64,000 bases of DNA from a virus (Duplodnaviria; Caudoviricetes). Made by a program: the position numbers and the translations under genes. Below, one piece after another: positions 4,318-51,188 of this stretch; within the stretch, counting starts at the first letter, position 1, and the number at the start of each line of letters is the position of its first letter. The stretch is taken from IMG/VR virus record IMGVR_UViG_2700989005_000001, positions 1 to 64,000 of that record; one strand, written 5' to 3'. Under the pieces are notes generated by a model that was not told where the DNA came from, did not search any database, and worked only from the letters and a program-made list of their open reading frames with translations.

Positions 4318-5250
4318 ATGAAAAGTACAATGTTTTTAAACAACATCACATGCATCGATCACGCATACGTTGATGAAAACGGTAAAATTAACGGTATGAG
4401 TTACAATCTATGTGTTGAAATCACCGGCGAAGTAGATGAAACTGAGCAAGTCGTAATTGACTTCAGCGGTTGCAAGAAAGCGATCAAGCAGTTAGTAGAC
4501 GAATCTGAACACGCAATTGATCACCGTCTAGTTCTTGTCAACGGATACAGTGAATATGTGTTAAGCGATATTGAAAATCGTGACCGTACACAAATCGACT
4601 CTCCGTTATTCACTGCTGTTTCGTCTGTCAATGACTGGTATCAAGAGATCGTCGATGTATCGCTATTCGATACTGATCTTCACATCCCGTCGGATACGCT
4701 GTACATGAACTATCTAACCGAGTATCTTGAAAATATGTTGCTGAAGCAGCTTAAACTACAAGGCTATCCGGTCACACACGTCACTGTAGAGCTTTCAGAG
4801 AGCTTTGACTTGCCATCATGGGCAAACACGCACGTTTCATTTCATTACGCTCATGGCTTGCGTTCTAGCTCTTCTTATGGGTGTCAGAACATTGCACATG
4901 GACATCGTTCGTTCATTGCAGTTGATGCCATGTTAAACAGTCGTGGTCGCAAAGTACTGGAGCGCATTGCTGAAGAAATGAGCGGCTACATCGTATGGAA
5001 CGACAATCTAACTGCGGAAGGTGCGGTAGCGTATTGTTCACAGCGTGGTAATTTCTATTTGAACATCGATTCAGAAGAAACAATCGTAATCAACACTGAA
5101 ACTACAGTTGAAAATCTCGCGAACTACATTGCAAAAACATACGAAGACGAGTTTCAGCGTATGGGTGTACAGCGTGTATGGGTATCTGAAGGTCTTTCGA
5201 AAGGCGCAGTCGTTGACATCAAAATCAACAAAGAATTACTCTATAAGTAA
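4318..5250 (+). CDS. queD: QueD-like 6-carboxytetrahydropterin synthase (tandem T-fold)
   Basis: IDF..K, IDH, HYAH...GCQNIAHGH and TTVEN motifs; context beside folE/queC. Confidence 0.8.
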   Translation: MKSTMFLNNITCIDHAYVDENGKINGMSYNLCVEITGEVDETEQVVIDFSGCKKAIKQLVDESEHAIDHRLVLVNGYSEYVLSDIENRDRTQIDSPLFTAVSSVNDWYQEIVDVSLFDTDLHIPSDTLYMNYLTEYLENMLLKQLKLQGYPVTHVTVELSESFDLPSWANTHVSFHYAHGLRSSSSYGCQNIAHGHRSFIAVDAMLNSRGRKVLERIAEEMSGYIVWNDNLTAEGAVAYCSQRGNFYLNIDSEETIVINTETTVENLANYIAKTYEDEFQRMGVQRVWVSEGLSKGAVVDIKINKELLYK

Positions 5251-5317
5251 TCAACAATTAATGTTTAGTAGCACGCTTCGGCGTGCTATTATTGTTTTCT
5301 GACTAAGAGGAAATAGA

Positions 5318-5986
5318 ATGTTAGACAAAAATAAAGTAGATCCAATTCTTGGACAAAAAGTTGAAGCGCATCTTCGTGAAATCGGAATGCACACGCCGAC
5401 TGTTGAAAACGGTCTAACTGATGATGAAAAGAAAGTAATTCTTGAAGATCGATTCACTGACATCATGCAAGCTCTAGGTCTTGACCTTACTGACGATTCG
5501 CTTGTTGATACACCGAAGCGTTGGGCTAAGATGATGGTCAATGAACTCATGAGCGGTCTATCACCAGATATGTTCCCTAAATGTACTGCTGTAGACAACA
5601 AAATGAACTACGATCAGATGGTTTGTGAAAAAGGCATTACTGTTCTTTCACAATGTGAGCATCACATCGTAACAATCGACGGCTTTGCAACAGTTGCATA
5701 TATCCCAAATAAGAAAGTACTTGGTCTTTCTAAGATGAATCGCATCGTCGAGTACTTTGCTCGACGCCCACAGATTCAAGAGCGTTTGACTGTTCAAATC
5801 GCTGAAGCACTGAAGTTCATTCTTGAAACTGAAGACGTGGCAGTATTGATCGACGCAAAACACTATTGCGTCAAGGCACGCGGTGTTGAAGACAACAACT
5901 CAAGCACTGTTACAAGTCACCTATCAGGTGCATTTCGTACCGAACCAGAAGCACGCGCCGAATTCATGTCTCTAGCACGAGGGTAA
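5318..5986 (+). CDS. folE: GTP cyclohydrolase I
   Basis: TPKR, SQCEHH, GLSK, RPQIQERLT, HYCVKARG motifs. Confidence 0.96.
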   Translation: MLDKNKVDPILGQKVEAHLREIGMHTPTVENGLTDDEKKVILEDRFTDIMQALGLDLTDDSLVDTPKRWAKMMVNELMSGLSPDMFPKCTAVDNKMNYDQMVCEKGITVLSQCEHHIVTIDGFATVAYIPNKKVLGLSKMNRIVEYFARRPQIQERLTVQIAEALKFILETEDVAVLIDAKHYCVKARGVEDNNSSTVTSHLSGAFRTEPEARAEFMSLARG

Positions 5987-5989
5987 TTG

Positions 5990-7366
5990 ATGATAATTGA
6001 ATACGTTATGTCTGCGACGGGTCATGCTCGTCTTGGTGCAGCACATAAACTAATGGACGTGGTTGACACGTCCTATTTGCGTAAAATACTAGACACAGCA
6101 CAAGATCTCGACGGTGTTCATAAAATCAGTATGTTGTATAACGCATACACTGAAAAGAAAGTCGGTAAGCAAATTAAAGACTTGTTCGGTGATTCTGTAT
6201 ACAAGATTCATGTCGATTCTGGCGGTCTTCAGATTGTTAACTTAGGTCTAGAGAATACACCAGAACTTCGTAAAGCAGTTTACGAGAATCAAGCAGAGTC
6301 TGGTGATATTGGCATGTGTTTCGATGAAATCCCGTTGCACAATGAAGCACAAGGTGGTGGTTCTGCTCGTATCAACACGAAAGACAAGGTCTTCATGTAT
6401 GATCTAGCGTACAAATACGGTGTTAAAACAGGTAAGAACATACGCGCTCAGATTGAAACATATCTTGAGAAAGAAAGCGATTGTAAACCGTACATAATCT
6501 TACAAGGCAACTCAGACGATGACTTTAAGGCATTCAGTGATGGTATAATGTCACAACTTGAAGGCGTTGAGCATCACATTGCTGGGTGTGCTGCTGCCGA
6601 TACATGTATTGGTAATGGCGTGCGTGAGTCTATTGACATGATGAGTGTCATTCCGAAGCTCAACATCCCAGATAAAGCAAAGAAATCTGTGCATATGCTA
6701 GGTGTCGGTTCTGTTAAGCGATTGTTGCCTGCTGTAGCTCTTATCAGAAGCGGTTATTTCGGTGATGATTTTCACATTAGCTACGACTCATCAACTCACA
6801 CTGGTTGTTTAACCAATCGTGAATACACAGATAAGCTCGGTCGTCGTCGTAAGATCTCAGGTCACGGCATCTTTAAAGATGGTAAGAAATTACCGTCGCG
6901 TGAACTAGATGAAATGCTAGATGAAGTGTGGGGTCGTTTCGGTCATGTGTTACCTCGGGGTAAGGAAGAGTTCAAAGAGTTCGCAACACGATTGTGGTTG
7001 AAAGAACTCGACAAAGAAACGATGACAGACGAAGATATTGTGTTTGAAGTTGCTTGTAATATGTGTATAATCTTATCACAAGTCAATAATTTCCAAGCAA
7101 TCATCTCCGAAACGTTTGACTTGAATACACCGAAAGCAGTTGATTTATCATCATTCTTCGATGGTTCTGTTGAGAAAAAAGAGCCGCAATCGGGCTTCAA
7201 GCATTGGTCGAAAGAACGTCGTCTAGACGTTTTAAACAAATTACTTGATGTGAAAGACGTTGCTGCATATCAGCGATGGCACGCAAGTCATATTGACAAG
7301 CTACCATCTATGCGTATTCGTCGCGGTACAACTGCTGAATTCCCAGCTTTCAAAGAACAAGAATAG
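5990..7366 (+). CDS. TGT-fold 7-deazaguanine transglycosylase (DpdA/TGT-like)
   Basis: HVDSGGLQ, FDEIP, HMLGVG and SYDSST motifs; embedded in preQ0 synthesis genes. Confidence 0.8.
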   Translation: MIIEYVMSATGHARLGAAHKLMDVVDTSYLRKILDTAQDLDGVHKISMLYNAYTEKKVGKQIKDLFGDSVYKIHVDSGGLQIVNLGLENTPELRKAVYENQAESGDIGMCFDEIPLHNEAQGGGSARINTKDKVFMYDLAYKYGVKTGKNIRAQIETYLEKESDCKPYIILQGNSDDDFKAFSDGIMSQLEGVEHHIAGCAAADTCIGNGVRESIDMMSVIPKLNIPDKAKKSVHMLGVGSVKRLLPAVALIRSGYFGDDFHISYDSSTHTGCLTNREYTDKLGRRRKISGHGIFKDGKKLPSRELDEMLDEVWGRFGHVLPRGKEEFKEFATRLWLKELDKETMTDEDIVFEVACNMCIILSQVNNFQAIISETFDLNTPKAVDLSSFFDGSVEKKEPQSGFKHWSKERRLDVLNKLLDVKDVAAYQRWHASHIDKLPSMRIRRGTTAEFPAFKEQE

Positions 7367-7395: not shown

Positions 7396-8304
7396 ATGAG
7401 CAATTATGATGAAGTATCAGCTATTGCGGCTGAGCATTTAGGTAAAAAAGCTGGCGATTACAGCGATTTCGTTAATATCGTAGACGTTCGACCAGATTTA
7501 CTTGTACCAATCCCGCGTGAGCTAAATCGAACTGATTACGGTATCACAAACGAAGACTTTGCAGGGTTTGATACATGGCATGGCTTCGAAGTATCGGCAC
7601 TGACTGAACAAGGTCTGCCTGTATCTGGTATGGCGAAAGTCGTGTACCCAAGCGATTCACCGAATATCGTTGAAAGTAAATCAATGAAACTGTATTGGAA
7701 CAGCTTCAACATGGCTAAAGTCGCTGCGACTCGTGCTGAAGTACAAGGTGCAATTGAAGCTATCGCGTCGCGTGATCTATCTGAAGTCATCGGTGCTGAA
7801 GTACAAGTGAGCTTCTTCACAGTCAGATCAACACAACCGCACGGTATGACAGGGTATGCAGAACTCGACAAATACGTATCTGAAGACACTGTATTCGACT
7901 CAGAAAGCGGTGCAGATGCTGATTTACTGCAAGAATCTCACGTGAAGCGCATGAAAGTGTTCACGCCGAATCTACGTTCTAACTGTCGCGTGACGCATCA
8001 ACCAGATTTCGGTGATCTGTATGTATACATGAAAGGTGAAAAAACACCAACTATTGACAGTCTCATGCAATACATCGTGTCATTCCGTAAAGAGAATCAT
8101 TTCCATGAAGAATGTGTTGAAATGATTTACAAAGCGTTACTTGATAAGTTCGACCCACAAGAGCTTATGGTAACAGCGTTATACACACGTCGCGGCGGTT
8201 GGAATATCTGCCCAGCACGTGCAACGCATGAAGAACTACTACCAGAAGCACTTGGTAGTGAAGTTGTCTCGCACACTAACGGAAGTTGTTTATTCCGTCA
8301 GTAA
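7396..8304 (+). CDS. queF: NADPH-dependent preQ0 reductase, bimodular type
   Basis: QueF motif IVESKSMKLY, catalytic SNCRVTHQPD, FHEECVE, YTRRGG. Confidence 0.93.
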   Translation: MSNYDEVSAIAAEHLGKKAGDYSDFVNIVDVRPDLLVPIPRELNRTDYGITNEDFAGFDTWHGFEVSALTEQGLPVSGMAKVVYPSDSPNIVESKSMKLYWNSFNMAKVAATRAEVQGAIEAIASRDLSEVIGAEVQVSFFTVRSTQPHGMTGYAELDKYVSEDTVFDSESGADADLLQESHVKRMKVFTPNLRSNCRVTHQPDFGDLYVYMKGEKTPTIDSLMQYIVSFRKENHFHEECVEMIYKALLDKFDPQELMVTALYTRRGGWNICPARATHEELLPEALGSEVVSHTNGSCLFRQ

Positions 8305-8315
8305 TAAGAGCTATG

Positions 8316-8341
8316 ATGAGTGTTCAATTGTGAGCACTCAT
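8316..8341 (+). other. 11-bp stem-loop between queF and queC
   Basis: ATGAGTGTTCA-attg-TGAGCACTCAT (one G-U pair), no U-tract. Confidence 0.6.
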
Positions 8342-8359
8342 ATACTTGAGAGGTTAAAA

Positions 8360-9076
8360 ATGAAAGTAGTATCTGTTCTAAGCGGTGGCTTGGACTCAAC
8401 AATCCTTACGTACAAACTAGTAGATGAATACGGCAAAGACAATGTGTTTGCATTATCGTTCTACTACGGTCAAAAACAGTCAATTGAGCTAGAAAAAGCT
8501 AAATTGACTTGTCAAAAGCTCGGTATCGAGCATCGTCTAATCGACATCTCATTCTTAGGTGAAGTGGTAGCACCTGTATGTGCAAATATCGCTGGTTCAG
8601 ATGTTGCTATGCCAACTATTCAAGACGTTCTAGGCGACCCTCAACCGCCAACTGAAGTTCCATATCGTAATATGCTATTGAACACAATCGCGTTCTCATT
8701 CGCGCAAGCAAATGGCTGTGCAGCGGTTTTTACTGGCATTCAAGTGCATGACGCATACGGTTACTGGGACTGCACACAAGACTTTCTTGACGGCATGAAC
8801 AATCTATCTGCACTGAATCGTCAACACGAGATTGCATTACTTGCTCCGTTCGCTCGTATGTCAAAGGCAGATGAAATCGCTATTGGTGTTAAGCTCGGTG
8901 TACCGTTTGAAGATAGTCTAACGTGTTACGACCCTAACGAAGCAGGTGAAAGCTGTGGTAAATGTCCGTCATGTGCTGAACGCATCATGAACTTCGGTAA
9001 AGCGGGTATTAAAGACCCAGCACCTTACTCGATTGATATCCCATGGGAACAAGTATTTGCTAAGGCAGGTCATTAA
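8360..9076 (+). CDS. queC: 7-cyano-7-deazaguanine synthase
   Basis: SGGLDS PP-loop, VPYRN, TCY...CGKCPSC; start at ATG 8360 after GAGG. Confidence 0.95.
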   Translation: MKVVSVLSGGLDSTILTYKLVDEYGKDNVFALSFYYGQKQSIELEKAKLTCQKLGIEHRLIDISFLGEVVAPVCANIAGSDVAMPTIQDVLGDPQPPTEVPYRNMLLNTIAFSFAQANGCAAVFTGIQVHDAYGYWDCTQDFLDGMNNLSALNRQHEIALLAPFARMSKADEIAIGVKLGVPFEDSLTCYDPNEAGESCGKCPSCAERIMNFGKAGIKDPAPYSIDIPWEQVFAKAGH

Positions 9077-9684
9077 TGTGTGGACTATTTGCTGCTAGAA
9101 GCAAGCAAGAGCTTATTGAATTGTCAAAGAGTAATATTCATCGTGGTTCGCGTACTCACTCTGTGAGTACGTTTAAGAACGGTCATGTGACGGTTCACAA
9201 GTTTACAGGGGCGTTCAATACAACTAATGTGCCTGATAGTGCAGATTTTTATATCTGTCATGTACAAGCACCAACGGGAACAAGTGCTCAAGCACATCCC
9301 GCTATTGTAACAATTGAAGAGAACGGTCAGTTGCATGATTCACACGTGTGGCATAATGGCATTCTTAAAGATCATTACATGAAAAAACAGACTCAAGAAT
9401 GGGATACTGCACACATCGCTGAAGCGATTTGCTACGGCAAATTAAACGAACTTGACGGTACGTTTGCTTGTTTTCACTTCATTAACGGCAATTTGCGTGT
9501 ATTTCGTAATGAAATTAGCCCGTTGTTCATGAGCGAAGACGGTACATCGTTTAGCAGCACGCGAACGATTTTAACTCCAGAGCATGTTGAGCCAAATAAA
9601 GTGTTTAACATCGACTTGAAGACGTTTAAGATGACAGTCGTAAACGAGTTCAAGACTCTTGAAAATCCCTATTTCTTTATGTGA
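9076..9684 (+). CDS. class II (Ntn) glutamine amidotransferase domain protein
   Basis: N-terminal MCG nucleophile, HRG, HNG and GTFA motifs; TAATG-coupled to queC. Confidence 0.8.
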   Translation: MCGLFAARSKQELIELSKSNIHRGSRTHSVSTFKNGHVTVHKFTGAFNTTNVPDSADFYICHVQAPTGTSAQAHPAIVTIEENGQLHDSHVWHNGILKDHYMKKQTQEWDTAHIAEAICYGKLNELDGTFACFHFINGNLRVFRNEISPLFMSEDGTSFSSTRTILTPEHVEPNKVFNIDLKTFKMTVVNEFKTLENPYFFM

Positions 9685-28943: not shown

Positions 28944-29969
28944 ATGTCACACGCAATCTTTATCGGACGCTTTCGTCCATTCCACAACGGTCATCTATCT
29001 GCAATCACACAAGCATTCGACGCGCTTGACCTAGACAAGATGACTATCTTAATCGGTAGCTCTAATCGACATCGTTCAGTTAAAAACCCTTTCACGTTCG
29101 AAGAAGTACGCGATATGATGGGTGTTGCTTTACCTGACGATATTCGAAGCAAAGTTCGCTTTGTACCACTAGGTGATTACGCGAAAGACGACGTTTGGCA
29201 GTCAAATGTTCGTGCTAGTACGAAAGGCGCCACTCACATCGTTGGTTACGACAAAGACGAAAGCAGCTACTATCTCAAGCTATTCCCTGAGCTAAAACTA
29301 TTTCAACCTGAACCAGTGAAGATGTATAACAGAGTTATCTCTGCAACTGACTTCAGAGAACTGTACTTCAGCGAGATTCTACTGAATCACCCTGTAATGT
29401 CTGGTCTGATTCCCAAGCAAACAATGATGTTTCTTGACGATTGGAGCAAAACAGAGCATTTCACTGAAATGAAAGCTGAATACGATAGCTCAGTGCGCGA
29501 AATCGAGAAGTTTAAAGATTATCCCTACCAAGGTCACTTGAATATCGCGTGTGCTGACAGCGTTGTGATGTGTGCAGGTCATGTTCTTCTTGTCGAGCGT
29601 AAGTTCAACCCAGGCAAAGGCTGTTTAGCATTACCTGGCGGTCATAAGCATGAGAAAGAAACATTCTTAACTGCTGCGATTCGTGAACTACAAGAAGAAA
29701 CTAACATCAAAGTCCCAGAGAAAGTCTTGCGTGGCTCGCTCAAAGATGAGAAGATGTTCGATAACCCAAATCGCTCTTACCCACACACTCGCATCACAAT
29801 GGCATATCACTTCAAAGTGCAGCCAAACCCTGACAACACTTTCCCGAAAGTGAAACCAGCCGATGATGCTGTGTCTGCAAAATGGTATTCGTTGAGCGAA
29901 GTAATGGACATGCAAGAACGTTTGTATGACGATCACTACCAAATCATTCAGTATTTCACTGGCATCTAA
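28944..29969 (+). CDS. natV: bifunctional NMN adenylyltransferase / Nudix hydrolase (NadM-Nudix)
   Basis: GRFRPFHNGH, KNPF, ISAT; Nudix box GG...E....AAIRELQEE. Confidence 0.92.
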   Translation: MSHAIFIGRFRPFHNGHLSAITQAFDALDLDKMTILIGSSNRHRSVKNPFTFEEVRDMMGVALPDDIRSKVRFVPLGDYAKDDVWQSNVRASTKGATHIVGYDKDESSYYLKLFPELKLFQPEPVKMYNRVISATDFRELYFSEILLNHPVMSGLIPKQTMMFLDDWSKTEHFTEMKAEYDSSVREIEKFKDYPYQGHLNIACADSVVMCAGHVLLVERKFNPGKGCLALPGGHKHEKETFLTAAIRELQEETNIKVPEKVLRGSLKDEKMFDNPNRSYPHTRITMAYHFKVQPNPDNTFPKVKPADDAVSAKWYSLSEVMDMQERLYDDHYQIIQYFTGI

Positions 29970-30005
29970 CTAATGGGGCAGTAATGCCCCTTTGAGGAAA
30001 TTAAT

Positions 30006-30278
30006 ATGAGCATTAAACAATTAGCAAAAACTGAAGTAAACAATTACAACACTGCATACGTAGATGTATACAAAATTCGTGAAGATATGATTGCAAAGTA
30101 CTCTGCTGCTCGTGCATGTGTTGAACGCGGCGATGGTACTATGAAAAACTGTACATTACGTCGTGAAATCTGTCGCGCTCTTGATAATTCTAGTGATTGG
30201 AATAAAGTTGCTAAGACTGATTCTGGTCGTCTATTGTATCAACGAGTGAAAAGCAATTCACTAGAGAACTTTGTATGA
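30006..30278 (+). CDS. hypothetical protein
   Basis: GAGG RBS. Confidence 0.7.
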   Translation: MSIKQLAKTEVNNYNTAYVDVYKIREDMIAKYSAARACVERGDGTMKNCTLRREICRALDNSSDWNKVAKTDSGRLLYQRVKSNSLENFV

Positions 30279-30625
30279 ACGCATACCGAATCAACACATC
30301 AATCGAAGATCTAGCAATAGTAAAAGGCGATTTGTTTGTTCAAAGTCCATTCAATGAACATGAATATAAAATGGCTCGTCAACCTCAACGACCACCAATG
30401 CATATCGACTTGATTACTCAGTTTCATCATCTTTATAATGAAACGACTGCTGCTGATGACGAAATCGCTGAATTGGTTCTAGAATGGAAGAATCAATACA
30501 AAACACGAACCGAAGCTTTGAATATGTTTCGCCAATCACTGCTCGAACAGCGCCAATCGATTGATGAACAAATCAAACAAACTACATCTACCATTGAACA
30601 ATTACGTGAAAAGTTCGGAGAGTAA
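30275..30625 (+). CDS. hypothetical coiled-coil protein
   Basis: coupled ORF. Confidence 0.7.
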   Translation: MNAYRINTSIEDLAIVKGDLFVQSPFNEHEYKMARQPQRPPMHIDLITQFHHLYNETTAADDEIAELVLEWKNQYKTRTEALNMFRQSLLEQRQSIDEQIKQTTSTIEQLREKFGE

Positions 30626-30626
30626 T

Positions 30627-31253
30627 ATGCACGCATATGACTTAGTAAGAAAAATGCAAAAGGTTGTTGAGTCTTGCGAGACAATTGAACAACTACGCAA
30701 TGCAAGAAAGTACCTCATGCGCTGTCAAGACTATGCACTCGATGGTGGCAATGATAGCTACATCACTACTATCATGGTTGAAGTTCAAGACCTCGATGAG
30801 CGAATCACAAATAAGATTGTTGAGCTTTCTGATACTCGTGGCATGAACGCTATCGAAACTGGTGTTATCAAAGTCGGCATCGATATTCATGGCGTAATTG
30901 ATCAATCACCAGAGTTCTTCGCGCTGTTAAGCAAACTACCAGTTGAAGTGCATATCATCACTGGCATTAAAGAAGAACTCGATACTGATGTACCAGATGA
31001 CTTAGAATATGATCACTGGTTTAGCATTCATCAATCATGTGAAGACGACGGCGTTGAAATCTTGTACGACGAGAAAGGTCGCCCATGGGTCGATGACGAA
31101 ATCTGGAACAACAAGAAAGCTGAATACTGCCGTGAGAATCAAATCAATATCATGATCGATGACTCACCAACGTATGCTAGATCCTTCGAAGGTCTTGATA
31201 CTTTCTATCTACAACTAACCAATACTGTTCGTGATGAATGGAGACGCAAATGA
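30627..31253 (+). CDS. HAD-like (5'-nucleotidase-like) domain fused to helical N-domain
   Basis: GIDIHGVID, IITG, K..YC, MIDDSP. Confidence 0.65.
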   Translation: MHAYDLVRKMQKVVESCETIEQLRNARKYLMRCQDYALDGGNDSYITTIMVEVQDLDERITNKIVELSDTRGMNAIETGVIKVGIDIHGVIDQSPEFFALLSKLPVEVHIITGIKEELDTDVPDDLEYDHWFSIHQSCEDDGVEILYDEKGRPWVDDEIWNNKKAEYCRENQINIMIDDSPTYARSFEGLDTFYLQLTNTVRDEWRRK

Positions 31254-32391
31254 GAAATTACGGCATTATAGACCGAGAAGGCAGATATCTACTTGTGCTA
31301 GACATTGACAATGAGATAAAAGTCATGGCAATCTTTTCTGAAATCGAAGATGCAAATCGTGTGCTGTACAAATATGATTTCGATAAGCAAGGCTTTCGCG
31401 TAATTGAACTACAACCATTGGAAAAGAAACTATGAACGTATCAAATGTAATGTCACAACACGCTGAAATTCAAGATGCACTTATTGCTATGCTCGACGAT
31501 GAGTTCAACGGCAAAGGTCATATCGAATATGCAGATTACTTCGATGACGAACAACTATGGGAAGTGCAATACTTCGATGGTGAAACAGTACAAGAAGTCA
31601 TTGTAACTACAGTCGCGCTCGAAAAATGGATGCATAATAACAAATGATACATGACATTATCATCGAACATCGTCGCATCATGAACATAGTCACTGAGTTG
31701 TGCCAACTCAAATCATATGAATTCATTGATGACATCGAGTACGATGAAGACAAACAAATATTCTATGTCACTATCGCTGAAGAAACTCAAAACGGCACTG
31801 AATACATAGAATGTAAAATCACTCTGCAACTAGTAGAAAACTACTATAAGGCTTGACAATGAAATTACCAGAATACTTACAACACATCAAAGTAAACGAA
31901 AACGTAATTACAGTAGACTCAGCACGCGATAAAGCTTTGGTCATCGATTACCTACAATCAATCAAAGCACGATTCCATACTGTACAAAAGACAGTTAGCC
32001 GCTGCGAAATTCACGTCAAGAGAGCTTAATCATGAAAGAACTACTTAAAACAATGAAAGAAACTGAAGAAGCCATCGCAGCGAAGTTTGGTCTAGACCAT
32101 CTATGGCACGGACTAGTAGACTGCACCGATGTGCTATTCACATGCGATCTAGTAACTGACGACGTGAAAGACATGCATACCGTCATTAATCAAATACGTG
32201 AGTTCCAATACGGCTTTGAAGACGCTAATGCATTAGAAGAAGGCGATTGCTATGCAGTAGAAGTTTACGGCACAAGCGTGTGGCTATCAACTGATAACAA
32301 ATACATGTTGACTACTGCCGATGACGGTAGTGGCAATAGAGACTTCTATATCTTCGATATGAATAATCTCAGATCATATGAATTATATTAA
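31250..32391 (+). CDS. run of small hypothetical genes (31250-31435, 31432-31647, 31644-31856, 31859-32029, 32032-32391)
   Basis: translationally coupled ORFs. Confidence 0.65.
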
Positions 32392-32394
32392 AGA

Positions 32395-32463
32395 AAAGGG
32401 TTGACAGTTGTCAGCCCTTTCGCGTATCATACACATATCAAATCAAGAAAGGAAAACATTATG
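32395..32463 (+). promoter_or_regulatory. terminator/-35 hairpin early promoter cassette
   Basis: AAAAGGGTTGACA-gt-TGTCAGCCCTTT, TATCAT, AAACATTATG. Confidence 0.75.
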
Positions 32464-33295
32464 ATTGGACTATCTATTATCATCGCAGTATTCAGCGTCG
32501 TGCTAATGATAGACTCACACGAGCAAATCATGTCTAAAGAATACAGAAACTTTGTCTTGATATTCAATGCCATTTGCTGTATAGTCAATCTAGCTAACAT
32601 GATTGTGATTCACAAATACGGAGTAACACTATGAGCTTGACAATACTACTAATGACACTTCTATGCTGTGCAATACTCACTGGCATGAGTATCTTCAGCT
32701 TCATTAACAAACCTAGATTCGTGAAACTAGTAATCACTGCTGTTCTAGGCTTTGTCTCGTATGTTCTACTACACGTAACGGCAGGCGCAATATGAATCAA
32801 ACTATCAAAGCAATATGCATAGACAATACTTCAACTCGTATCGATAAACCAGAACCACCAAGCGGCATTACTCTAGGCAAAGAATATGTCGTTCACATGT
32901 ATAACGTAAACGAACATACAAATAAACCACCTATGATTCGTATTACTAATGACAACAACCAACGAGCAAGCTATGTCGCTGCACGCTTTAATCTATCAAT
33001 AGGATAAACTCATGTTCGCACTATCAATCTTAATTCTGATTCTCACTACATATCTGTTTGTAACCGATAAATCAAAACGAACAGTTCCATTCGTGGCTCT
33101 GCTAATAACAACTGCGTTTAACTGTATCATTCAGTATTACCTAATTGATATTCTATCATTGAGCTTTAAACTATCGTAATGCAAACACTAATCAATCTAC
33201 TAAACGATATACCTATCGGCTACCTCATGCTTGTTCTATGTGCTCTAGCAGCTATAGCCGGTTGGTGCCTGAGCGATATATCAAACGATGACTAA
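32461..33295 (+). CDS. four small membrane proteins (32461-32634, 32631-32795, 33012-33179, 33179-33295) plus 32792-33007
   Basis: hand-translated 38-57 aa hydrophobic ORFs with ATGA/TAATG overlaps. Confidence 0.65.
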
Positions 33296-33386
33296 AAACG
33301 CTTAGAATCGCTCTCACAGCGTCTCAGAGCATGGTACAGATACGATTGTTTTTAATATATCGCACCATGCCTCGTTTAAATGCACA

Positions 33387-33495
33387 TGTGTATAAATCTG
33401 TGGATAATATGTGTATGAGATTGTGCATAAGTGTCTGAAATCTGTGTATAAAAACATGATTTAGCTGTGCATAAGTCTGTGGATAATGTGGATAA
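33387..33495. promoter_or_regulatory. DnaA-box array (candidate replication origin or DnaA-titration locus)
   Basis: TGTGNATAA at 33387, 33399, 33422, 33443, 33466, 33478, 33487; TGTGTATGA at 33410; intergenic. Confidence 0.75.
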
Positions 33496-33665
33496 CTTTT
33501 TAGTGAAAAAATGGTGAAAGACTCATCGGCTCCTGTGTGGTACGCGGCAGTCTAAAACCTTACACCATTTATGAAAATCTAATTCGCTTCGCATCTTCTT
33601 GCTTGACAGCCAGCGGCATTATGTGAGAGAATGCAAAGAGATTTGAACTGCCTACGGAGGTAATT

Positions 33666-33812
33666 GTGATTACATTGGCGTTATTTTATATGAGTCGCGA
33701 CATGCAATACAGCGAGCGACCAAGTGACTTGTACCTTGGTACATGTATTTTAGACTTTGCATTAATCGCCACGATGTTCTGTGGTGTAATGATGTTCACT
33801 GGTAATTGGTAA
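33666..33812 (+). CDS. 48-aa small membrane protein
   Basis: GGAGGT RBS, GTG start, TTGACA promoter at about 33603. Confidence 0.6.
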   Translation: MITLALFYMSRDMQYSERPSDLYLGTCILDFALIATMFCGVMMFTGNW

Positions 33813-34135
33813 TGTTGTTTAAGAATTACAGAGTGAATCGCCATGTTCGTGCTCGTGCTATAGAGTTATTGAATTGTGGTGAGTTGCATCGCGTGTATAC
33901 TTGTTTAGAGTTACATCGTGGTGTGAGTGACGAGATGGTTAGTTTGATTAAGCTTAAACTAAAGCATTTGCAGCGTATGTACGTACGGCAGAGTGATTTG
34001 CCGAATGATTTAGAAGATTGTTATTCTTTTATCTGTGCGTATCACCCGCCTTGTGAACATCGTAAGTTGCGTGAATATGAGCGTAAGTCGTGGTTGAAAT
34101 ACATCATAGAGAACATTAATAAGGTAAAGATATGA
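33812..34135 (+). CDS. YTC...RKxWL family paralog
   Basis: YTC and ERKSWLKYII. Confidence 0.65.
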   Translation: MLFKNYRVNRHVRARAIELLNCGELHRVYTCLELHRGVSDEMVSLIKLKLKHLQRMYVRQSDLPNDLEDCYSFICAYHPPCEHRKLREYERKSWLKYIIENINKVKI

Positions 34136-34440
34136 AGAAGTACCGATTGGGTAATTTGTTGCGTGGTGGTTGGTCTGGTGAGTTTGCCAGTTTAGAAGAG
34201 GCGTGGGTTCAGTTAGGTTCGCGTTTTCTACTATCATTTCCGTGTGAGAAATGGGAGAAAGACATTGGTATGTCTATCAATGAAGATGGTGGTCGTACTG
34301 TGTATATGTATGTTCAAGAAGAGAACAAGTATGGTCAATTAGATTGGGCTTGTTGTAAGAACGGTGTGTTCTATATGAACGAACGAGTGCCAGTAACGGC
34401 AGACGATTACAAGCGTTGCAGTGATGTAGAATTTTTCTAA
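34132..34440 (+). CDS. hypothetical protein
   Basis: AAGG RBS, ATGA overlap. Confidence 0.7.
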   Translation: MKKYRLGNLLRGGWSGEFASLEEAWVQLGSRFLLSFPCEKWEKDIGMSINEDGGRTVYMYVQEENKYGQLDWACCKNGVFYMNERVPVTADDYKRCSDVEFF

Positions 34441-34450
34441 GGGTTATAAG

Positions 34451-35059
34451 ATGAAACGAATTGAAAGACATAAGAAAGTAGTAGACAAGAAAGCGATTAT
34501 GCCGAGCGGTAGTATGGTACGAGTTGAGACGTACTACAACACATGGTCTGGTTATTTGAATTGCCTTGACTCGGGTGATGGTATACGTGGTATAGAGCAA
34601 CCGACTTATATGCTAGTATCTGACAATGGTGCTTTTTACTCAGTTGAAGAAGATAAAGTAAATGGTAACAAGCAGACACAGACAAAATACGATGGTCAGT
34701 TGGTACTTGTACATGCTCGATTGAAGTTGTCAGCGAAAGATTGGGATTGGTACCCTTGTAAGTGGAAGAGTGGTCGTCTTGTATATGCGTATAAAGAAAC
34801 TGATTTTGTCGATGAAGAGCACGAGCTAGTTGTCGGTGAGATACTAGACATTTATGCCGCAAGCGATAGTACATCGTCATATGCACATGACGCGACAGTT
34901 GTTGTATCACGTCCGACACAAATTGCTGTTGAGACGTATGGTAAACTAGTAGTGTTTACGGTTGGTTCTGATACAGATGAACTCGTATCTGATTGTGGTG
35001 ATTATCGTATTGATGGTCGATATGCTGCTAGTCAGTACGATGAAGAGCTTCATTCGTAA
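34451..35059 (+). CDS. hypothetical protein
   Basis: ORF with AAGG RBS. Confidence 0.7.
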   Translation: MKRIERHKKVVDKKAIMPSGSMVRVETYYNTWSGYLNCLDSGDGIRGIEQPTYMLVSDNGAFYSVEEDKVNGNKQTQTKYDGQLVLVHARLKLSAKDWDWYPCKWKSGRLVYAYKETDFVDEEHELVVGEILDIYAASDSTSSYAHDATVVVSRPTQIAVETYGKLVVFTVGSDTDELVSDCGDYRIDGRYAASQYDEELHS

Positions 35060-35068
35060 AAGTTAAAG

Positions 35069-35096
35069 AAAAGGGTTGCGCTATGCAGCCCTTTTT
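35069..35096 (+). repeat. 28-bp direct repeat, left copy (terminator/promoter hairpin)
   Basis: AAAAGGGTTGCGCTATGCAGCCCTTTTT identical to 36050-36077. Confidence 0.9.
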
Positions 35097-35128
35097 TATA
35101 TTCTACAGTTTTTGAATTGGAGGATAAT

Positions 35129-36043
35129 ATGACTAGAATTAAATGGACACCTGAACGTCTTAAAGAAGATGCATTGAAATACAAGACTCGTACTGAATGG
35201 TGTAAAAACTCAAGTGGAGCGTACAATGCTGCTCGAAACCGTGGTTTATTAGATGAGTGTTGTGCTCATATGAAGTCAAGTCAGAGACCAAACGGATTTT
35301 GGAATTTAGAAACACTTCAAGAAGATGCATCCAAGTATAATTCTCGTTCTGAATGGGAGAAACGGTCTAGAAGTGCATATTATGCTGCTCAAAGGCGTGG
35401 TTTATTAGATGAGTGTTGTGCTCATATGAAGCCATCGACTAAAACGTTGATTAATCGTTGTATATACCGAATCTATGCTGGCAACGAGATTTACATTGGT
35501 CTAACTTATGATGTTGATGTTCGTTTCCGTGAACATAAAACAAAAACAAAGAAAATTATCAAGTTGATTGAGCGTCATGGTATTGATAATGTGAAGTTCG
35601 AGCAAATAACTGATTACATGGACCAAGAACTCGCTCAGATTGCTGAGGCAGAACACATAGAGAGTTATAGAAACAATGATTGGGTTATTTTAAACCGTGC
35701 AAAAGCTGGGGCGTTAGGGAAAGCTAGATTGAAATGGAATTTAGAAACACTTCAAGAAGATGCATCCAAGTATAATTCTCGTTCTGAATGGGAGAAACGG
35801 TCTAGAAGTGCATATTACATCGCTCAGAAAAGAGGTCTCCTTGATGAGTGCTGTGCTCATATGACACGATTGAAAAGACCAAACGGATTTTGGAATTTAG
35901 AAACACTTAAAGAAGATGCATCCGTTTACAAGACTCGTAATGAATGGCGAACAAAATCAAGTAATGCTTATAGCGCAGCTAAGCGACTGGGATTAATTGA
36001 TGAGTGCTGCGGTCATATGCCGAAAAGAGCCAAGCGAAAATAA
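35129..36043 (+). CDS. GIY-YIG (Seg-like) homing endonuclease with four ~50-aa repeats
   Basis: central CIY..YIG..R..EH domain; repeats W.LE.L.EDA..Y..R.EW...S..AY..A...GLLDECCAHM. Confidence 0.8.
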   Translation: MTRIKWTPERLKEDALKYKTRTEWCKNSSGAYNAARNRGLLDECCAHMKSSQRPNGFWNLETLQEDASKYNSRSEWEKRSRSAYYAAQRRGLLDECCAHMKPSTKTLINRCIYRIYAGNEIYIGLTYDVDVRFREHKTKTKKIIKLIERHGIDNVKFEQITDYMDQELAQIAEAEHIESYRNNDWVILNRAKAGALGKARLKWNLETLQEDASKYNSRSEWEKRSRSAYYIAQKRGLLDECCAHMTRLKRPNGFWNLETLKEDASVYKTRNEWRTKSSNAYSAAKRLGLIDECCGHMPKRAKRK

Positions 36044-36049
36044 TTTAAT

Positions 36050-36124
36050 AAAAGGGTTGCGCTATGCAGCCCTTTTTAGTATTATAGCTTTATCGAAACG
36101 ACAACGACTAGAGAGAATATTATG
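36050..36124 (+). promoter_or_regulatory. 28-bp direct repeat, right copy, within early promoter cassette
   Basis: hairpin with TTGCGC, TATTAT, ATCGAAACGA...GAGAATATTATG. Confidence 0.85.
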
Positions 36125-36439
36125 CAAATCATCAACGAAACTAAGTCATTTACTGTTTCACGTCACCCGCGTGGTGGTATGCGCCATGAGCTTGATAAAA
36201 GCATGTACGCGAAGAACGGTAATGCTTTGTCTTCAGTTCGCATTTATCTAGCTGCTGAGTACGGTATGATTGAAGGTCAAGACTACACAATTGACAGTGG
36301 TATGACTTATACTCTGCTACGTATTGAGCGCATTAACGATATTAATGCCAAGAATAATTTCTTTCAAGTCGGCGAATACTACGATTTAGACATCGATTTT
36401 GCTTCTAACACTGTACGTATGTACCAAGATAAGGGATAA
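36122..36439 (+). CDS. hypothetical early protein
   Basis: ORF after cassette. Confidence 0.75.
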   Translation: MQIINETKSFTVSRHPRGGMRHELDKSMYAKNGNALSSVRIYLAAEYGMIEGQDYTIDSGMTYTLLRIERINDINAKNNFFQVGEYYDLDIDFASNTVRMYQDKG

Positions 36440-36443
36440 AACT

Positions 36444-36851
36444 ATGAAAATTCTACCAGATTTCCTTGATAACACTGAAATTCGCCGTGTAATTAGCGAA
36501 AAAGCACTGGAATTACGTCAAAATACCGCGATTTTAAGCGATGAAGACGCTTACACGTGTCATATTTTAGATGATCACGTCGAAATCAAGCTTGGCGTTC
36601 TTGCTCAACAAAAAGCTATGCGTATCATTAAAGATAAAGGCGAAGCTTTCTGTGACCATCTACAAGCTAATCCTGAAGCTGTATTTGGTCGTGAATTGAC
36701 TTCAACTGAAGCTGAATATCTCAACGAGATTTTTCAAAACAAGCTTAGTGCATTTGTACATAGCGTATCGCGTGTATTTGAAGATGCCGATGATATTGAT
36801 TTTGTATTTGTGCGTAAAGCATGGTTAAAATTCTTGATTAATTCACTATAA
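36444..36851 (+). CDS. YTC...RKxWL family paralog
   Basis: YTCH, AFVH, VRKAWLKFL. Confidence 0.75.
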   Translation: MKILPDFLDNTEIRRVISEKALELRQNTAILSDEDAYTCHILDDHVEIKLGVLAQQKAMRIIKDKGEAFCDHLQANPEAVFGRELTSTEAEYLNEIFQNKLSAFVHSVSRVFEDADDIDFVFVRKAWLKFLINSL

Positions 36852-50351: not shown

Positions 50352-51188
50352 AACTACACAACTGAAACAATCAAAGCTTGCATGAATCTAGTTGCTACAT
50401 TGAAATCAGACAAGATTACAAAAGGTAATGTTGAGAAGCTTCGCGCTGCATATCGCGCACAGCAAGATCAAGAAGTGTCTATTGCTATGTCTTCTATCTG
50501 TTCGATTGCAGAGCGTCATTTAGACCGAAAAGCAGCGAATCGTCCTGCAATGAGCAAGTGTGCTGAATCTTACTTGAACTTTGATTGGCGTGATATCCCG
50601 GGTTGTGTTGGTTTTTCACGTGAAGTACTAGAGGTGTAACATGGTTAGTCTTTTAAAAGCAGTTAATAGTGAGTTCACGAGCTATACAGATCGCGTACTG
50701 CCATCTGTAATCGCAGAGAAAGTCGCTAGTGCGTGTGAGCAAGAATATTGGGCAACGTTTTACACACACGATTGCAAGTCACTTGACACCGCTGATCGTG
50801 ATGTCGTATTCGATCTTATTGCAAACGAGCTTGGTCTTGAAAATGGGTGGCCTATGTATGGTTCTTCTGACGAGTACAAGCAACAGTTCAAACAAGAACT
50901 TGAGAAATTGGAGACAGCATGAAACTACTAGTTAAAATCAAAGAATTTCTTTTCCCGACGATTACACCACCTGAAATAGGTGAAAGATATCTTCAAATTG
51001 ACAAAGATTGGGTTGACACGAGCGTCGGAGCGAATATAATCGAAGTCGTGAATGTATCGAAAGACGGTAAGCACATACAATATGATTGGGTGTGCATCGA
51101 GGGCAAAGACCATTCGATATCGTCTAGAACTACATACGAAATGTCAACACATCACCTTTATAACTATTTCGAGAAACATAATGACTAG
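50349..51188 (+). CDS. hypothetical genes (50349-50639, 50641-50922, 50919-51188)
   Basis: ORFs after cassette. Confidence 0.7.

Follow-up and report, generated by a model that had tools for sequence, protein, structure and literature searches.

What turns over the strand composition of a phage genome at a place where all the genes are read in the same direction? This question is raised by a 370-nt intergenic gap (33,296–33,665) at which the + strand changes from C-rich to G-rich beside a row of DnaA-box-like sites. The gap lies in the window, the stretch of 64,000 nucleotides (nt) analyzed here, which is bases 1–64,000 of a 246,964-bp virus record (IMGVR_UViG_2700989005_000001). The earlier note on this DNA had described the switch and taken it as support for a fixed bidirectional origin. 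Its observation was confirmed, and in none of four KVP40-like genomes is any other site compositionally as extreme as this locus. Judged from sequence, the intergenic region at 33.3–33.7 kb may be a fixed bidirectional, origin-like initiation zone, a reading that we hold tentatively and at slightly less than an even chance. The origin interpretation would in any case need two amendments, namely that the compositional footprint is local and that the DnaA boxes are accessory.

Across 32,400–35,200, the window is 97% identical to Vibrio phage phi-Grn1 and 95–96% identical to XZ1 and ValKK3, with KVP40-group phages as more distant matches; all 24 matching records are Vibrio phages, and we found no sequence similarity to the locus outside them. 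Because the matches are all Vibrio phages, with phi-Grn1, XZ1, and ValKK3 the closest, the source is on sequence grounds a large KVP40-like, T4-related Vibrio myophage (Schizotequatrovirus, according to the taxonomy of the records). By megablast, similarity to KVP40 stops at window position 33,815. As a virulent T4-like phage, it would encode its own replisome, in contrast to what serves a bacterial chromosomal origin.

The base counts given in the earlier note proved exact when the 60-nt lines were recounted (C/G = 15/9, 17/9, 13/7, and 16/7 upstream; 4/17, 5/17, and 6/22 downstream). In 300-nt windows, GC skew was −0.26/−0.31 at 32,750–33,200 and +0.27/+0.44 at 33,650–35,000, and AT skew moved in the opposite sense across the flip. 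To place these values in the genome, we calculated a jump, the skew of the W bases to the right minus that of the W bases to the left, at every position of the whole 246,964-bp record. Positions 33,350–33,400 gave the top GC-skew jump of the genome at each of three window sizes, at about six standard deviations (sd), and again at third codon positions. The jump was 0.469 (sd 0.084) at W = 600, 0.398 (sd 0.066) at W = 1500, and 0.327 (sd 0.061) at W = 2500; at third codon positions, with 500 sites on either side, it was 0.82 (sd 0.147).

This jump exceeds those at true coding-strand switches (for example, at 126.8 kb) and differs from them in kind. On the keto/amino axis (G+T versus A+C), it is again the genome maximum (z = 5.6), with only z = 1.7 on the purine axis, whereas coding-strand switches appear as purine-axis jumps. 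The flanking genes are all on the + strand according to the list of open reading frames (ORFs), our own gene calls, and the annotations of three relatives. Gene orientation was hence rejected as the cause, as the earlier note had argued, the + strand being coding throughout and the purine skew unchanged. The G+C content is also steady across the flip (0.34–0.43). Among the 32 same-strand intergenic gaps of at least 120 nt, a large change in GC skew at third codon positions (GC3 skew) was found here only (+0.80; the others range from −0.32 to +0.21).

The features of the locus, from left to right, are as follows:

28944–33295, + strand: left arm, natV (28944–29969) followed by 13 small genes, with names taken from Pfam and PHROG
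33296–33378, no strand assigned: left non-coding module, CTTAGAAT..TCAGAG..TTTTTnATATnnCGCACCnnGnnTCGTT, deeply conserved
33387–33495, + strand: seven DnaA-box-like 9-mers with at most one mismatch from TGTGGATAA, in a single orientation
33500–33600, no strand assigned: right conserved non-coding stretch, from a five-lineage alignment
33603–33632, + strand: sigma-70-like promoter-like site, TTGACA-N18-GAGAAT with TG before the −10, a pattern match only
33666–35059, + strand: right arm, genes 33666–33812, 33812–34135, 34132–34440, and 34451–35059
35067–35097, + strand: intrinsic-terminator-like hairpin followed by a U run
35129–36043, + strand: GIY-YIG homing-endonuclease-like gene (Pfam GIY-YIG, E = 4.4e-5; PHROG homing endonuclease, E = 8e-6)

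The two arms are mirror images in composition (GC3 skew approximately −0.42 and AT3 skew approximately +0.17 on the left; approximately +0.38 and −0.27 on the right), and the footprint is local, reaching ~4 kb leftward and ~1.4–3 kb rightward. On the left, GC3 skew is mostly −0.36 to −0.70 within 1.8 kb and has returned to −0.03/−0.07 past 5 kb. On the right, it runs +0.57, +0.41, +0.34, +0.28, and −0.19 at +0.5, +0.8, +1.3, +2.1, and +2.8 kb. The largest negative GC-skew jump of the genome lies at 35.5–36.3 kb, and the G-rich stretch is therefore a bounded island (33.65–36.05 kb). The suggestion that the skew fades within a few kilobases can be made more precise accordingly.

If the flip were an artefact of amino-acid composition, it should be lost at fourfold-degenerate sites. 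Per-gene statistics on 378 self-called genes and three small local ORFs showed the opposite: the flip peaks at third codon positions and is still present at fourfold sites. Amino-acid composition differs little from that of the genome, and the artefact was rejected. In the left arm, GC3 skew lies between −0.06 and −0.70 in 13 of the 14 genes and is 0.00 in the gene at 33012–33179, the genome mean being −0.05 (sd 0.185). Values of −0.36 to −0.70 (0.5–4.5th percentile) occur in five of the six genes between 32,032 and 33,295, the synonymous sites being C- and A-rich and the effect generally greater in the genes closest to the intergenic region. The last three genes of the right arm (33,893–35,059) reach +0.34 to +0.59 (98th–100th percentile), and the coding strand of this arm is G- and T-rich and C-poor at codon positions 1, 2, and 3. 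Pooled fourfold G:C counts are 30:75 for 30,006–33,295 and 31:7 for the four right-arm genes (42:14 for 33,666–36,043, which includes the gene at 35129–36043), compared with 5107:3340 genome-wide. Codon choice follows the same pattern:

G-ending among twofold R-ending codons: right arm 0.567, left arm 0.207, genome 0.325
C-ending among twofold Y-ending codons: right arm 0.317, left arm 0.495, genome 0.487
GGT among Gly codons: right arm 28/28, left arm 0.28, genome 0.64
GGC among Gly codons: right arm 0, left arm 0.59, genome 0.19

All codon families shift alike within each arm and oppositely between the arms. The flip therefore acts at the nucleotide level, and the opposite shifts argue against translational selection.

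We compared the locus among 13 genomes: the window, phi-Grn1, XZ1, ValKK3, KVP40, VH1_2019, QD01, VS2, nt-1, CZ01, D484, F86, and 1.081.O. The orthologous non-coding region carries a jump of +0.26 to +0.45 (1.2 kb per side) in all 13, and per-gene GC3 skew confirms the flip in KVP40, nt-1, D484, F86, and 1.081.O. Whole-genome scans of KVP40, D484, and nt-1 placed the locus first for GC skew in nine of nine scans and for keto skew in three of three; counting the source genome, it is the top-ranked GC-skew jump in 4/4 genomes scanned whole. What accompanies the flip in every case is the non-coding module rather than the genes. The left module forms runs of invariant columns in the five-lineage alignment although the flanking proteins are only 27–69% identical, and it is recognizable by eye in 1.081.O. 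In that phage, the flip lies at the conserved module (locus ~1,850–2,250), the G-rich zone of ~3 kb is filled by genes without a homologue in the right arm of the window, and the homologue of the 202-aa right-arm protein sits 5.9 kb further on with a GC3 skew of −0.01. The replacement of the genes and the unskewed state of the displaced homologue show that the skew belongs to the site and not to the genes. The order of genes within the G-rich zone also varies between lineages, since a hydrophobic 48-aa ORF (33666–33812, phrog_16778) directly follows the promoter-like site in the window, whereas its homologue stands just upstream of the 202-aa gene in nt-1, D484, and F86. At conserved residues, fourfold sites are 0.45–0.55 identical in six of nine cross-lineage gene pairs and 0.58–0.79 in the other three, where composition alone gives a chance identity of 0.29–0.41. 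Fourfold identity is low enough that the shared skew can be only partly inherited and must be maintained.

The DnaA-box-like sites stand in a looser relation to the flip. In the window, they start at 33387, 33399, 33422, 33443, 33466, 33478, and 33487, all within 109 nt; they include three of the five perfect TGTGGATAA copies in the genome and are the sole cluster among the 60 boxes with at most one mismatch genome-wide. An array of seven boxes, with spacing within 1 nt of that in the window, occurs at 8 of the 13 loci, and F86 has five boxes. KVP40, VH1_2019, D484, and 1.081.O have no boxes at the locus yet keep the flip, and neither KVP40 nor D484 has a perfect box anywhere in its genome. 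The flip thus lies within ~150 nt of the array on which the earlier note centered it, but it does not depend on the boxes. We also noted that nt-1 has two further perfect TGTGGATAA boxes, separated by 22 nt (record 39,117 and 39,139), ~21 kb away from its main array. In phi-Grn1, an extra annotated gene of 546 nt (locus 4912–5457) separates the last of the small upstream genes from the box array, so insertions occur in the intergenic region as well.

How might one site impose opposite biases on its two sides? In the reading that we favor, DNA synthesis would start both ways at 33.3–33.7 kb, primed by RNA, by primase, or by an invading 3′ end. Near the start site, each parental strand would stay single-stranded for extra time: to the right this would be the + strand, displaced or serving as lagging-strand template for the fork that moves rightward, and to the left the − strand. 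Deamination of the exposed DNA (C to T, A to G) would then, over many infection cycles, leave the + strand rich in G and T to the right and in C and A to the left. The footprint would be local in that only the first, uncoupled or slow, synthesis is tied to the site, with later T4-like replication mostly started elsewhere by recombination. Since lineages that lack the boxes keep the flip, the DnaA-box array would be an accessory and the core of the element would lie elsewhere. A single process by which the + strand is exposed on the right and the − strand on the left would account for both arms, for the keto character of the flip, for its decay with distance, and for its linkage to the site, and DNA synthesis that starts in both directions has this effect. 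The locus is the best sequence-based candidate for a fixed replication start, and this is the most economical, if unproven, reading. We infer both that replication starts at the locus and that mutation rather than selection made the skew. A more specific version is possible but rather doubtful: the notch in composition may be the accumulated footprint of uncoupled, strand-displacing synthesis running both ways from the main early origin, with the module as origin core and the array as a means by which most lineages recruit or sense host DnaA. Recruitment or sensing of DnaA is not described for T4-type phages in the literature that we searched. A double-strand-break resection hotspot was also considered and was rejected by reasoning only, as plain 5′ resection would leave the other strand exposed on each side and so yield the reverse polarity. 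Break-induced replication starting at a break of this kind would give the observed polarity and was folded into the favored reading.

Set beside known systems, the locus shares part of its character with each. As at a bacterial chromosomal origin (oriC), the top strand switches from C/A-rich to G/T-rich, and seven same-orientation DnaA-box-like sites, about one or two helical turns apart, stand at the switch. Unlike at oriC, the skew extends over a few kilobases instead of whole replichores, it has a far greater local amplitude (0.8 for the third-position jump), it does not require the boxes, and there is neither a clear unwinding element nor a GATC cluster. With the T4 origins, the locus shares a related family and a replication logic in which early origin firing gives way to recombination-dependent replication, and the candidate site adjoins a promoter-like site. 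Its footprint is also about as long as helicase-independent leading-strand synthesis in vitro. According to the portions of a T4 review consulted (PMC3016281), leading-strand synthesis from an origin R-loop reaches ~2.5 kb without helicase, and T4 origin forks are slow and yield short nascent DNAs early, before recombination-dependent replication. The short reach of the footprint would fit such helicase-independent and slow-fork synthesis. By contrast, T4 oriF and oriG need a MotA-dependent middle promoter and, downstream of it, an AT-rich unwinding element that holds a persistent R-loop; here, no MotA activation domain was detected and no marked unwinding element was found, and the promoter-like site at 33603 is of the sigma-70 −35/−10 type. 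It matches the consensus at 10 of 12 positions and is conserved in KVP40.

Several results weigh against an origin at this site. A marked AT-rich unwinding element was not found: the 40-mers of lowest stability in the vicinity reach only the 99.5th percentile and lie inside a gene. A short conserved TTGTTTTTAATATAT stretch 30–45 nt to the left of the first box has a 40-nt duplex stability at the 84th–90th percentile, which is not extreme, and the DNA downstream of the promoter-like site (33,620–33,760) is ordinary (11th–81st percentile). The intergenic region contains no GATC and hence no GATC cluster. The MotA activation domain (PF09114, MotA_activ) had no match in the genome, which makes a middle promoter of the T4 oriF/oriG type unlikely; the search gave no match in the control genomes either, so that the absence of the domain is not established. 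We noted that an AsiA homologue is present (genome 91256–91510, E = 1.2e-46). The earlier note had expected the cumulative minimum near 33.3–33.5 kb, but the genome minimum of the raw GC curve, which climbs with the coding strand, is at position 4, and detrending over both strands moves it to 169,920. The detrended GC3 curve of the + strand genes does have its global minimum at the locus (33,770), as a narrow notch ~100 units deep and a few kilobases wide and not as a replichore-scale V, and the cumulative keto curve has its local minimum within 20–50 kb at 33,227. No genome-wide V or replichore-scale skew was found in the cumulative curves.

The T4 genome itself provides a further counterweight. 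At its four annotated origins (oriA, 16,763; oriE, 79,355; oriF, 115,321; oriG, 152,947), the jump scan gave z ≤ 1.5 for oriA, oriE, and oriG and ~2.7–3.3 for oriF, the last amid coding-strand switches. The top T4 jumps are coding-strand switches, and none of the four origins exceeds them locally. The sections consulted of the T4 review describe some origins as coinciding with transcriptional divergence and skew shifts, and oriA and oriC as not doing so (PMC3016281). At the locus itself, a conserved terminator stands at or close to the end of the right arm in the window lineage, nt-1, and F86, so that the extent of the arm fits a transcription unit no less than a distance, and a third-position jump of 0.8 is very large for a purely mutational effect of one origin firing per infection. 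Lastly, polarized singleton substitutions among four genomes of 94–97% identity showed no current asymmetry in the right arm (C>T 0.020 versus G>A 0.016 per site) and in fact erode the skew (G lost 10 and gained 2; C lost 6 and gained 13), although with n = 36 the power is low and recombination tracts may dominate. Counts in the homing-endonuclease stretch are invalid, ValKK3 being without the gene. The switch has the classical origin polarity on both sides, but the premise that it marks a bidirectional origin finds no precedent in T4, the best-studied relative, and the support claimed for a fixed bidirectional origin amounts to a real inversion of origin polarity that comes with neither replichore skew nor a marked unwinding element.

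Could transcription make the skew instead? The right arm would then be a short, very heavily transcribed early operon running from 33603 to 35067–35097, whose non-template strand, exposed in the bubble or in R-loops, loses C or is selected to be G-rich for R-loops. The left arm would need a leftward transcript or selection against R-loops. The skew of +0.3 to +0.44 does set in at ~33,650, after the promoter-like site at 33603–33632, and the island, which starts just past this conserved site and ends at or near the conserved terminator in the window lineage, nt-1, and F86, has G>C and T>A on the non-template strand, as do known transcription/R-loop zones. Genome-wide, the fourfold sites of the coding strand likewise have G>C (5107:3340) and T>A (13260:9712), as a transcription-linked bias predicts. 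We nevertheless consider this explanation unlikely. There is no general effect at the other 31 gaps, where skew does not rise systematically (mean over all 32 = 0.011, Wilcoxon p = 0.98), and an equally good or better promoter-like site at 32401 (11/12 matches) stands ahead of the genes whose skew is most negative. The reversed bias of the co-oriented upstream genes is not expected of such zones either: the left arm is the more deviant of the two at fourfold sites, sense transcription cannot account for it, and no leftward sigma-70-like site scores above 9/12. GGG occurs 5.6 times per kb in the right arm versus 5.9 genome-wide (47th percentile), so the arm shows no enrichment of the G-clusters by which zones of R-loop initiation are marked.

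Strand composition could also be under selection for a polar DNA function at the module, such as dense primase- or helicase-loading sites on whichever strand has to be primed first on each side, or another strand-specific signal that has nothing to do with replication start. This would explain why the skew persists across lineages despite diverged fourfold sites, and the erosion by recent substitutions is expected under selective maintenance. The bias also reaches non-synonymous positions, with GC2 skew at the 99.6th–100th percentile in two right-arm genes and GC1 and GC2 skews at the 0.3–0.5th percentile in 33012–33179. T4 primase recognizes GTT, and the counts of GTT versus AAC are 16:41 to the left of the flip and 43:16 to its right, a larger jump of this type than anywhere else in the genome. 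Yet this asymmetry is no larger than base composition predicts (observed/expected 0.83 and 1.42), no specific oriented motif was found, and a few kilobases of coding sequence make a large target; we regard selection of this kind as improbable. It is very improbable that the arms are merely gene blocks of different origin, codon adaptation, or amino-acid make-up that were juxtaposed by coincidence. It is true that the locus is variable, consists of small genes whose functions are unknown, and carries mobile insertions (the GIY-YIG-like gene at 35129–36043; the 546-nt gene in phi-Grn1), and the KVP40 megablast match ends at 33,815. But the G+C content is unchanged at 0.34–0.43 and the flip is strongest at synonymous sites, the codon choice of the two blocks shifts oppositely, unlike under translational selection, and the two main right-arm genes are orthologous in KVP40 (69% and 61%). 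The flip recurs in 13/13 genomes and ranks first in 4/4, and in 1.081.O the G-rich zone is filled by unrelated genes while the relocated homologue is unskewed. On the strength of the steady G+C content, the 13/13 recurrence, and the gene replacement in 1.081.O, a horizontal island or gene-specific composition was largely rejected.

The genes around the flip give few clues to function. Among the left-arm genes, natV (nicotinamide mononucleotide adenylyltransferase/Nudix) lies at the far end, and the 208-aa gene at 30627–31253 is annotated in ValKK3 as a nicotinate-nucleotide adenylyltransferase; the natV-like gene and 30627–31253 are nicotinamide adenine dinucleotide-salvage genes, typical of KVP40-like phages. 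The right-arm proteins matched no family of known function in Pfam or PHROG. KVP40.0173 shares 69% identity with the 102-aa protein, and KVP40.0174 shares 61% with the 202-aa protein. For the 202-aa protein, we found no Pfam family, a PHROG match of unknown function, Atlas matches of at most 0.77, and only five homologue clusters, and its AlphaFold model (mean predicted local distance difference test score, 43) was too poor for a fold search. Its homologues occur in 44 phage records, all Vibrio phages, and a search of a viral contig collection with this protein returned no relatives. A scan of viral contigs for the module pattern recovered KVP40 and three further hits, which were judged to be chance as the rest of the module was missing and there was no flip. 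Rfam gave no match at E ≤ 1 in 32000–36500, and the TATAAATA late-promoter motif is absent from both strands of 29–37 kb.

The hairpin at 35067–35097 folds at −18.2 kcal/mol (z = −4.8; 0/200 shuffles as good) and is the end of the G-rich island in relatives without the next gene. The 45-nt stretch that contains it (window 35058–35102) is 97.8% identical in nt-1 (locus ~8716–8760), whereas the adjacent proteins are only 64% identical, and a near-identical hairpin occurs in F86 (locus 9124–9150). Conservation at such a level is unusual for a terminator. The GIY-YIG-like gene beyond it is also G-skewed (GC3 skew +0.28) and is an indel-variable insertion, absent from ValKK3 and KVP40 and present as a 1224-nt version in XZ1 (locus 7980–9203); we found no paralogue of it in the genome. 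VH1_2019, of the KVP40 group, has a 1044-nt gene at the same site (locus 5004–6047). We also noted that several relatives' records begin or end at or beside the locus (OQ164647/OM782678/ON190024, MT135026, and PP712916): the break in PVA8/PC-Liy1 falls in the intergenic region, the V09 record opens inside the 202-aa gene, and that of TCU_VP02_YC stops in the intergenic region. Chance or an effect of assembly could explain these record ends.

In the literature that we searched, whose coverage did not include the original KVP40 genome paper, we found nothing on this locus, on its DnaA boxes, or on a mapped origin in KVP40-like phages. One paper names a putative origin in a close relative: the sections consulted of the phi-Grn1 genome paper place it elsewhere, at 51,089 in that genome's own coordinates, from global cumulative skew, and describe the skew as tracking transcription direction (PMC5107563). 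The locus described here is a single sharp landmark, which makes it a precise and testable origin candidate that fits on a fragment of ~370 nt. Should it prove to be something other than an origin, the conserved bipolar skew would still have to be explained, since we tested the usual causes (gene orientation, amino-acid content, codon adaptation, and horizontal transfer) and none accounts for it. If it is an origin, a mutational footprint of a few kilobases could locate origins in viruses that lack a genome-wide skew. The strands would then also seem to be exposed differently in the first kilobases of synthesis from an origin than in bulk replication, and a T4-type phage would seem to have gained sites that bind the host initiator and to have lost them again in some lineages. 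Should the skew be the footprint of strand-displacing synthesis, the origin of a T4-like phage would be readable directly from its sequence.

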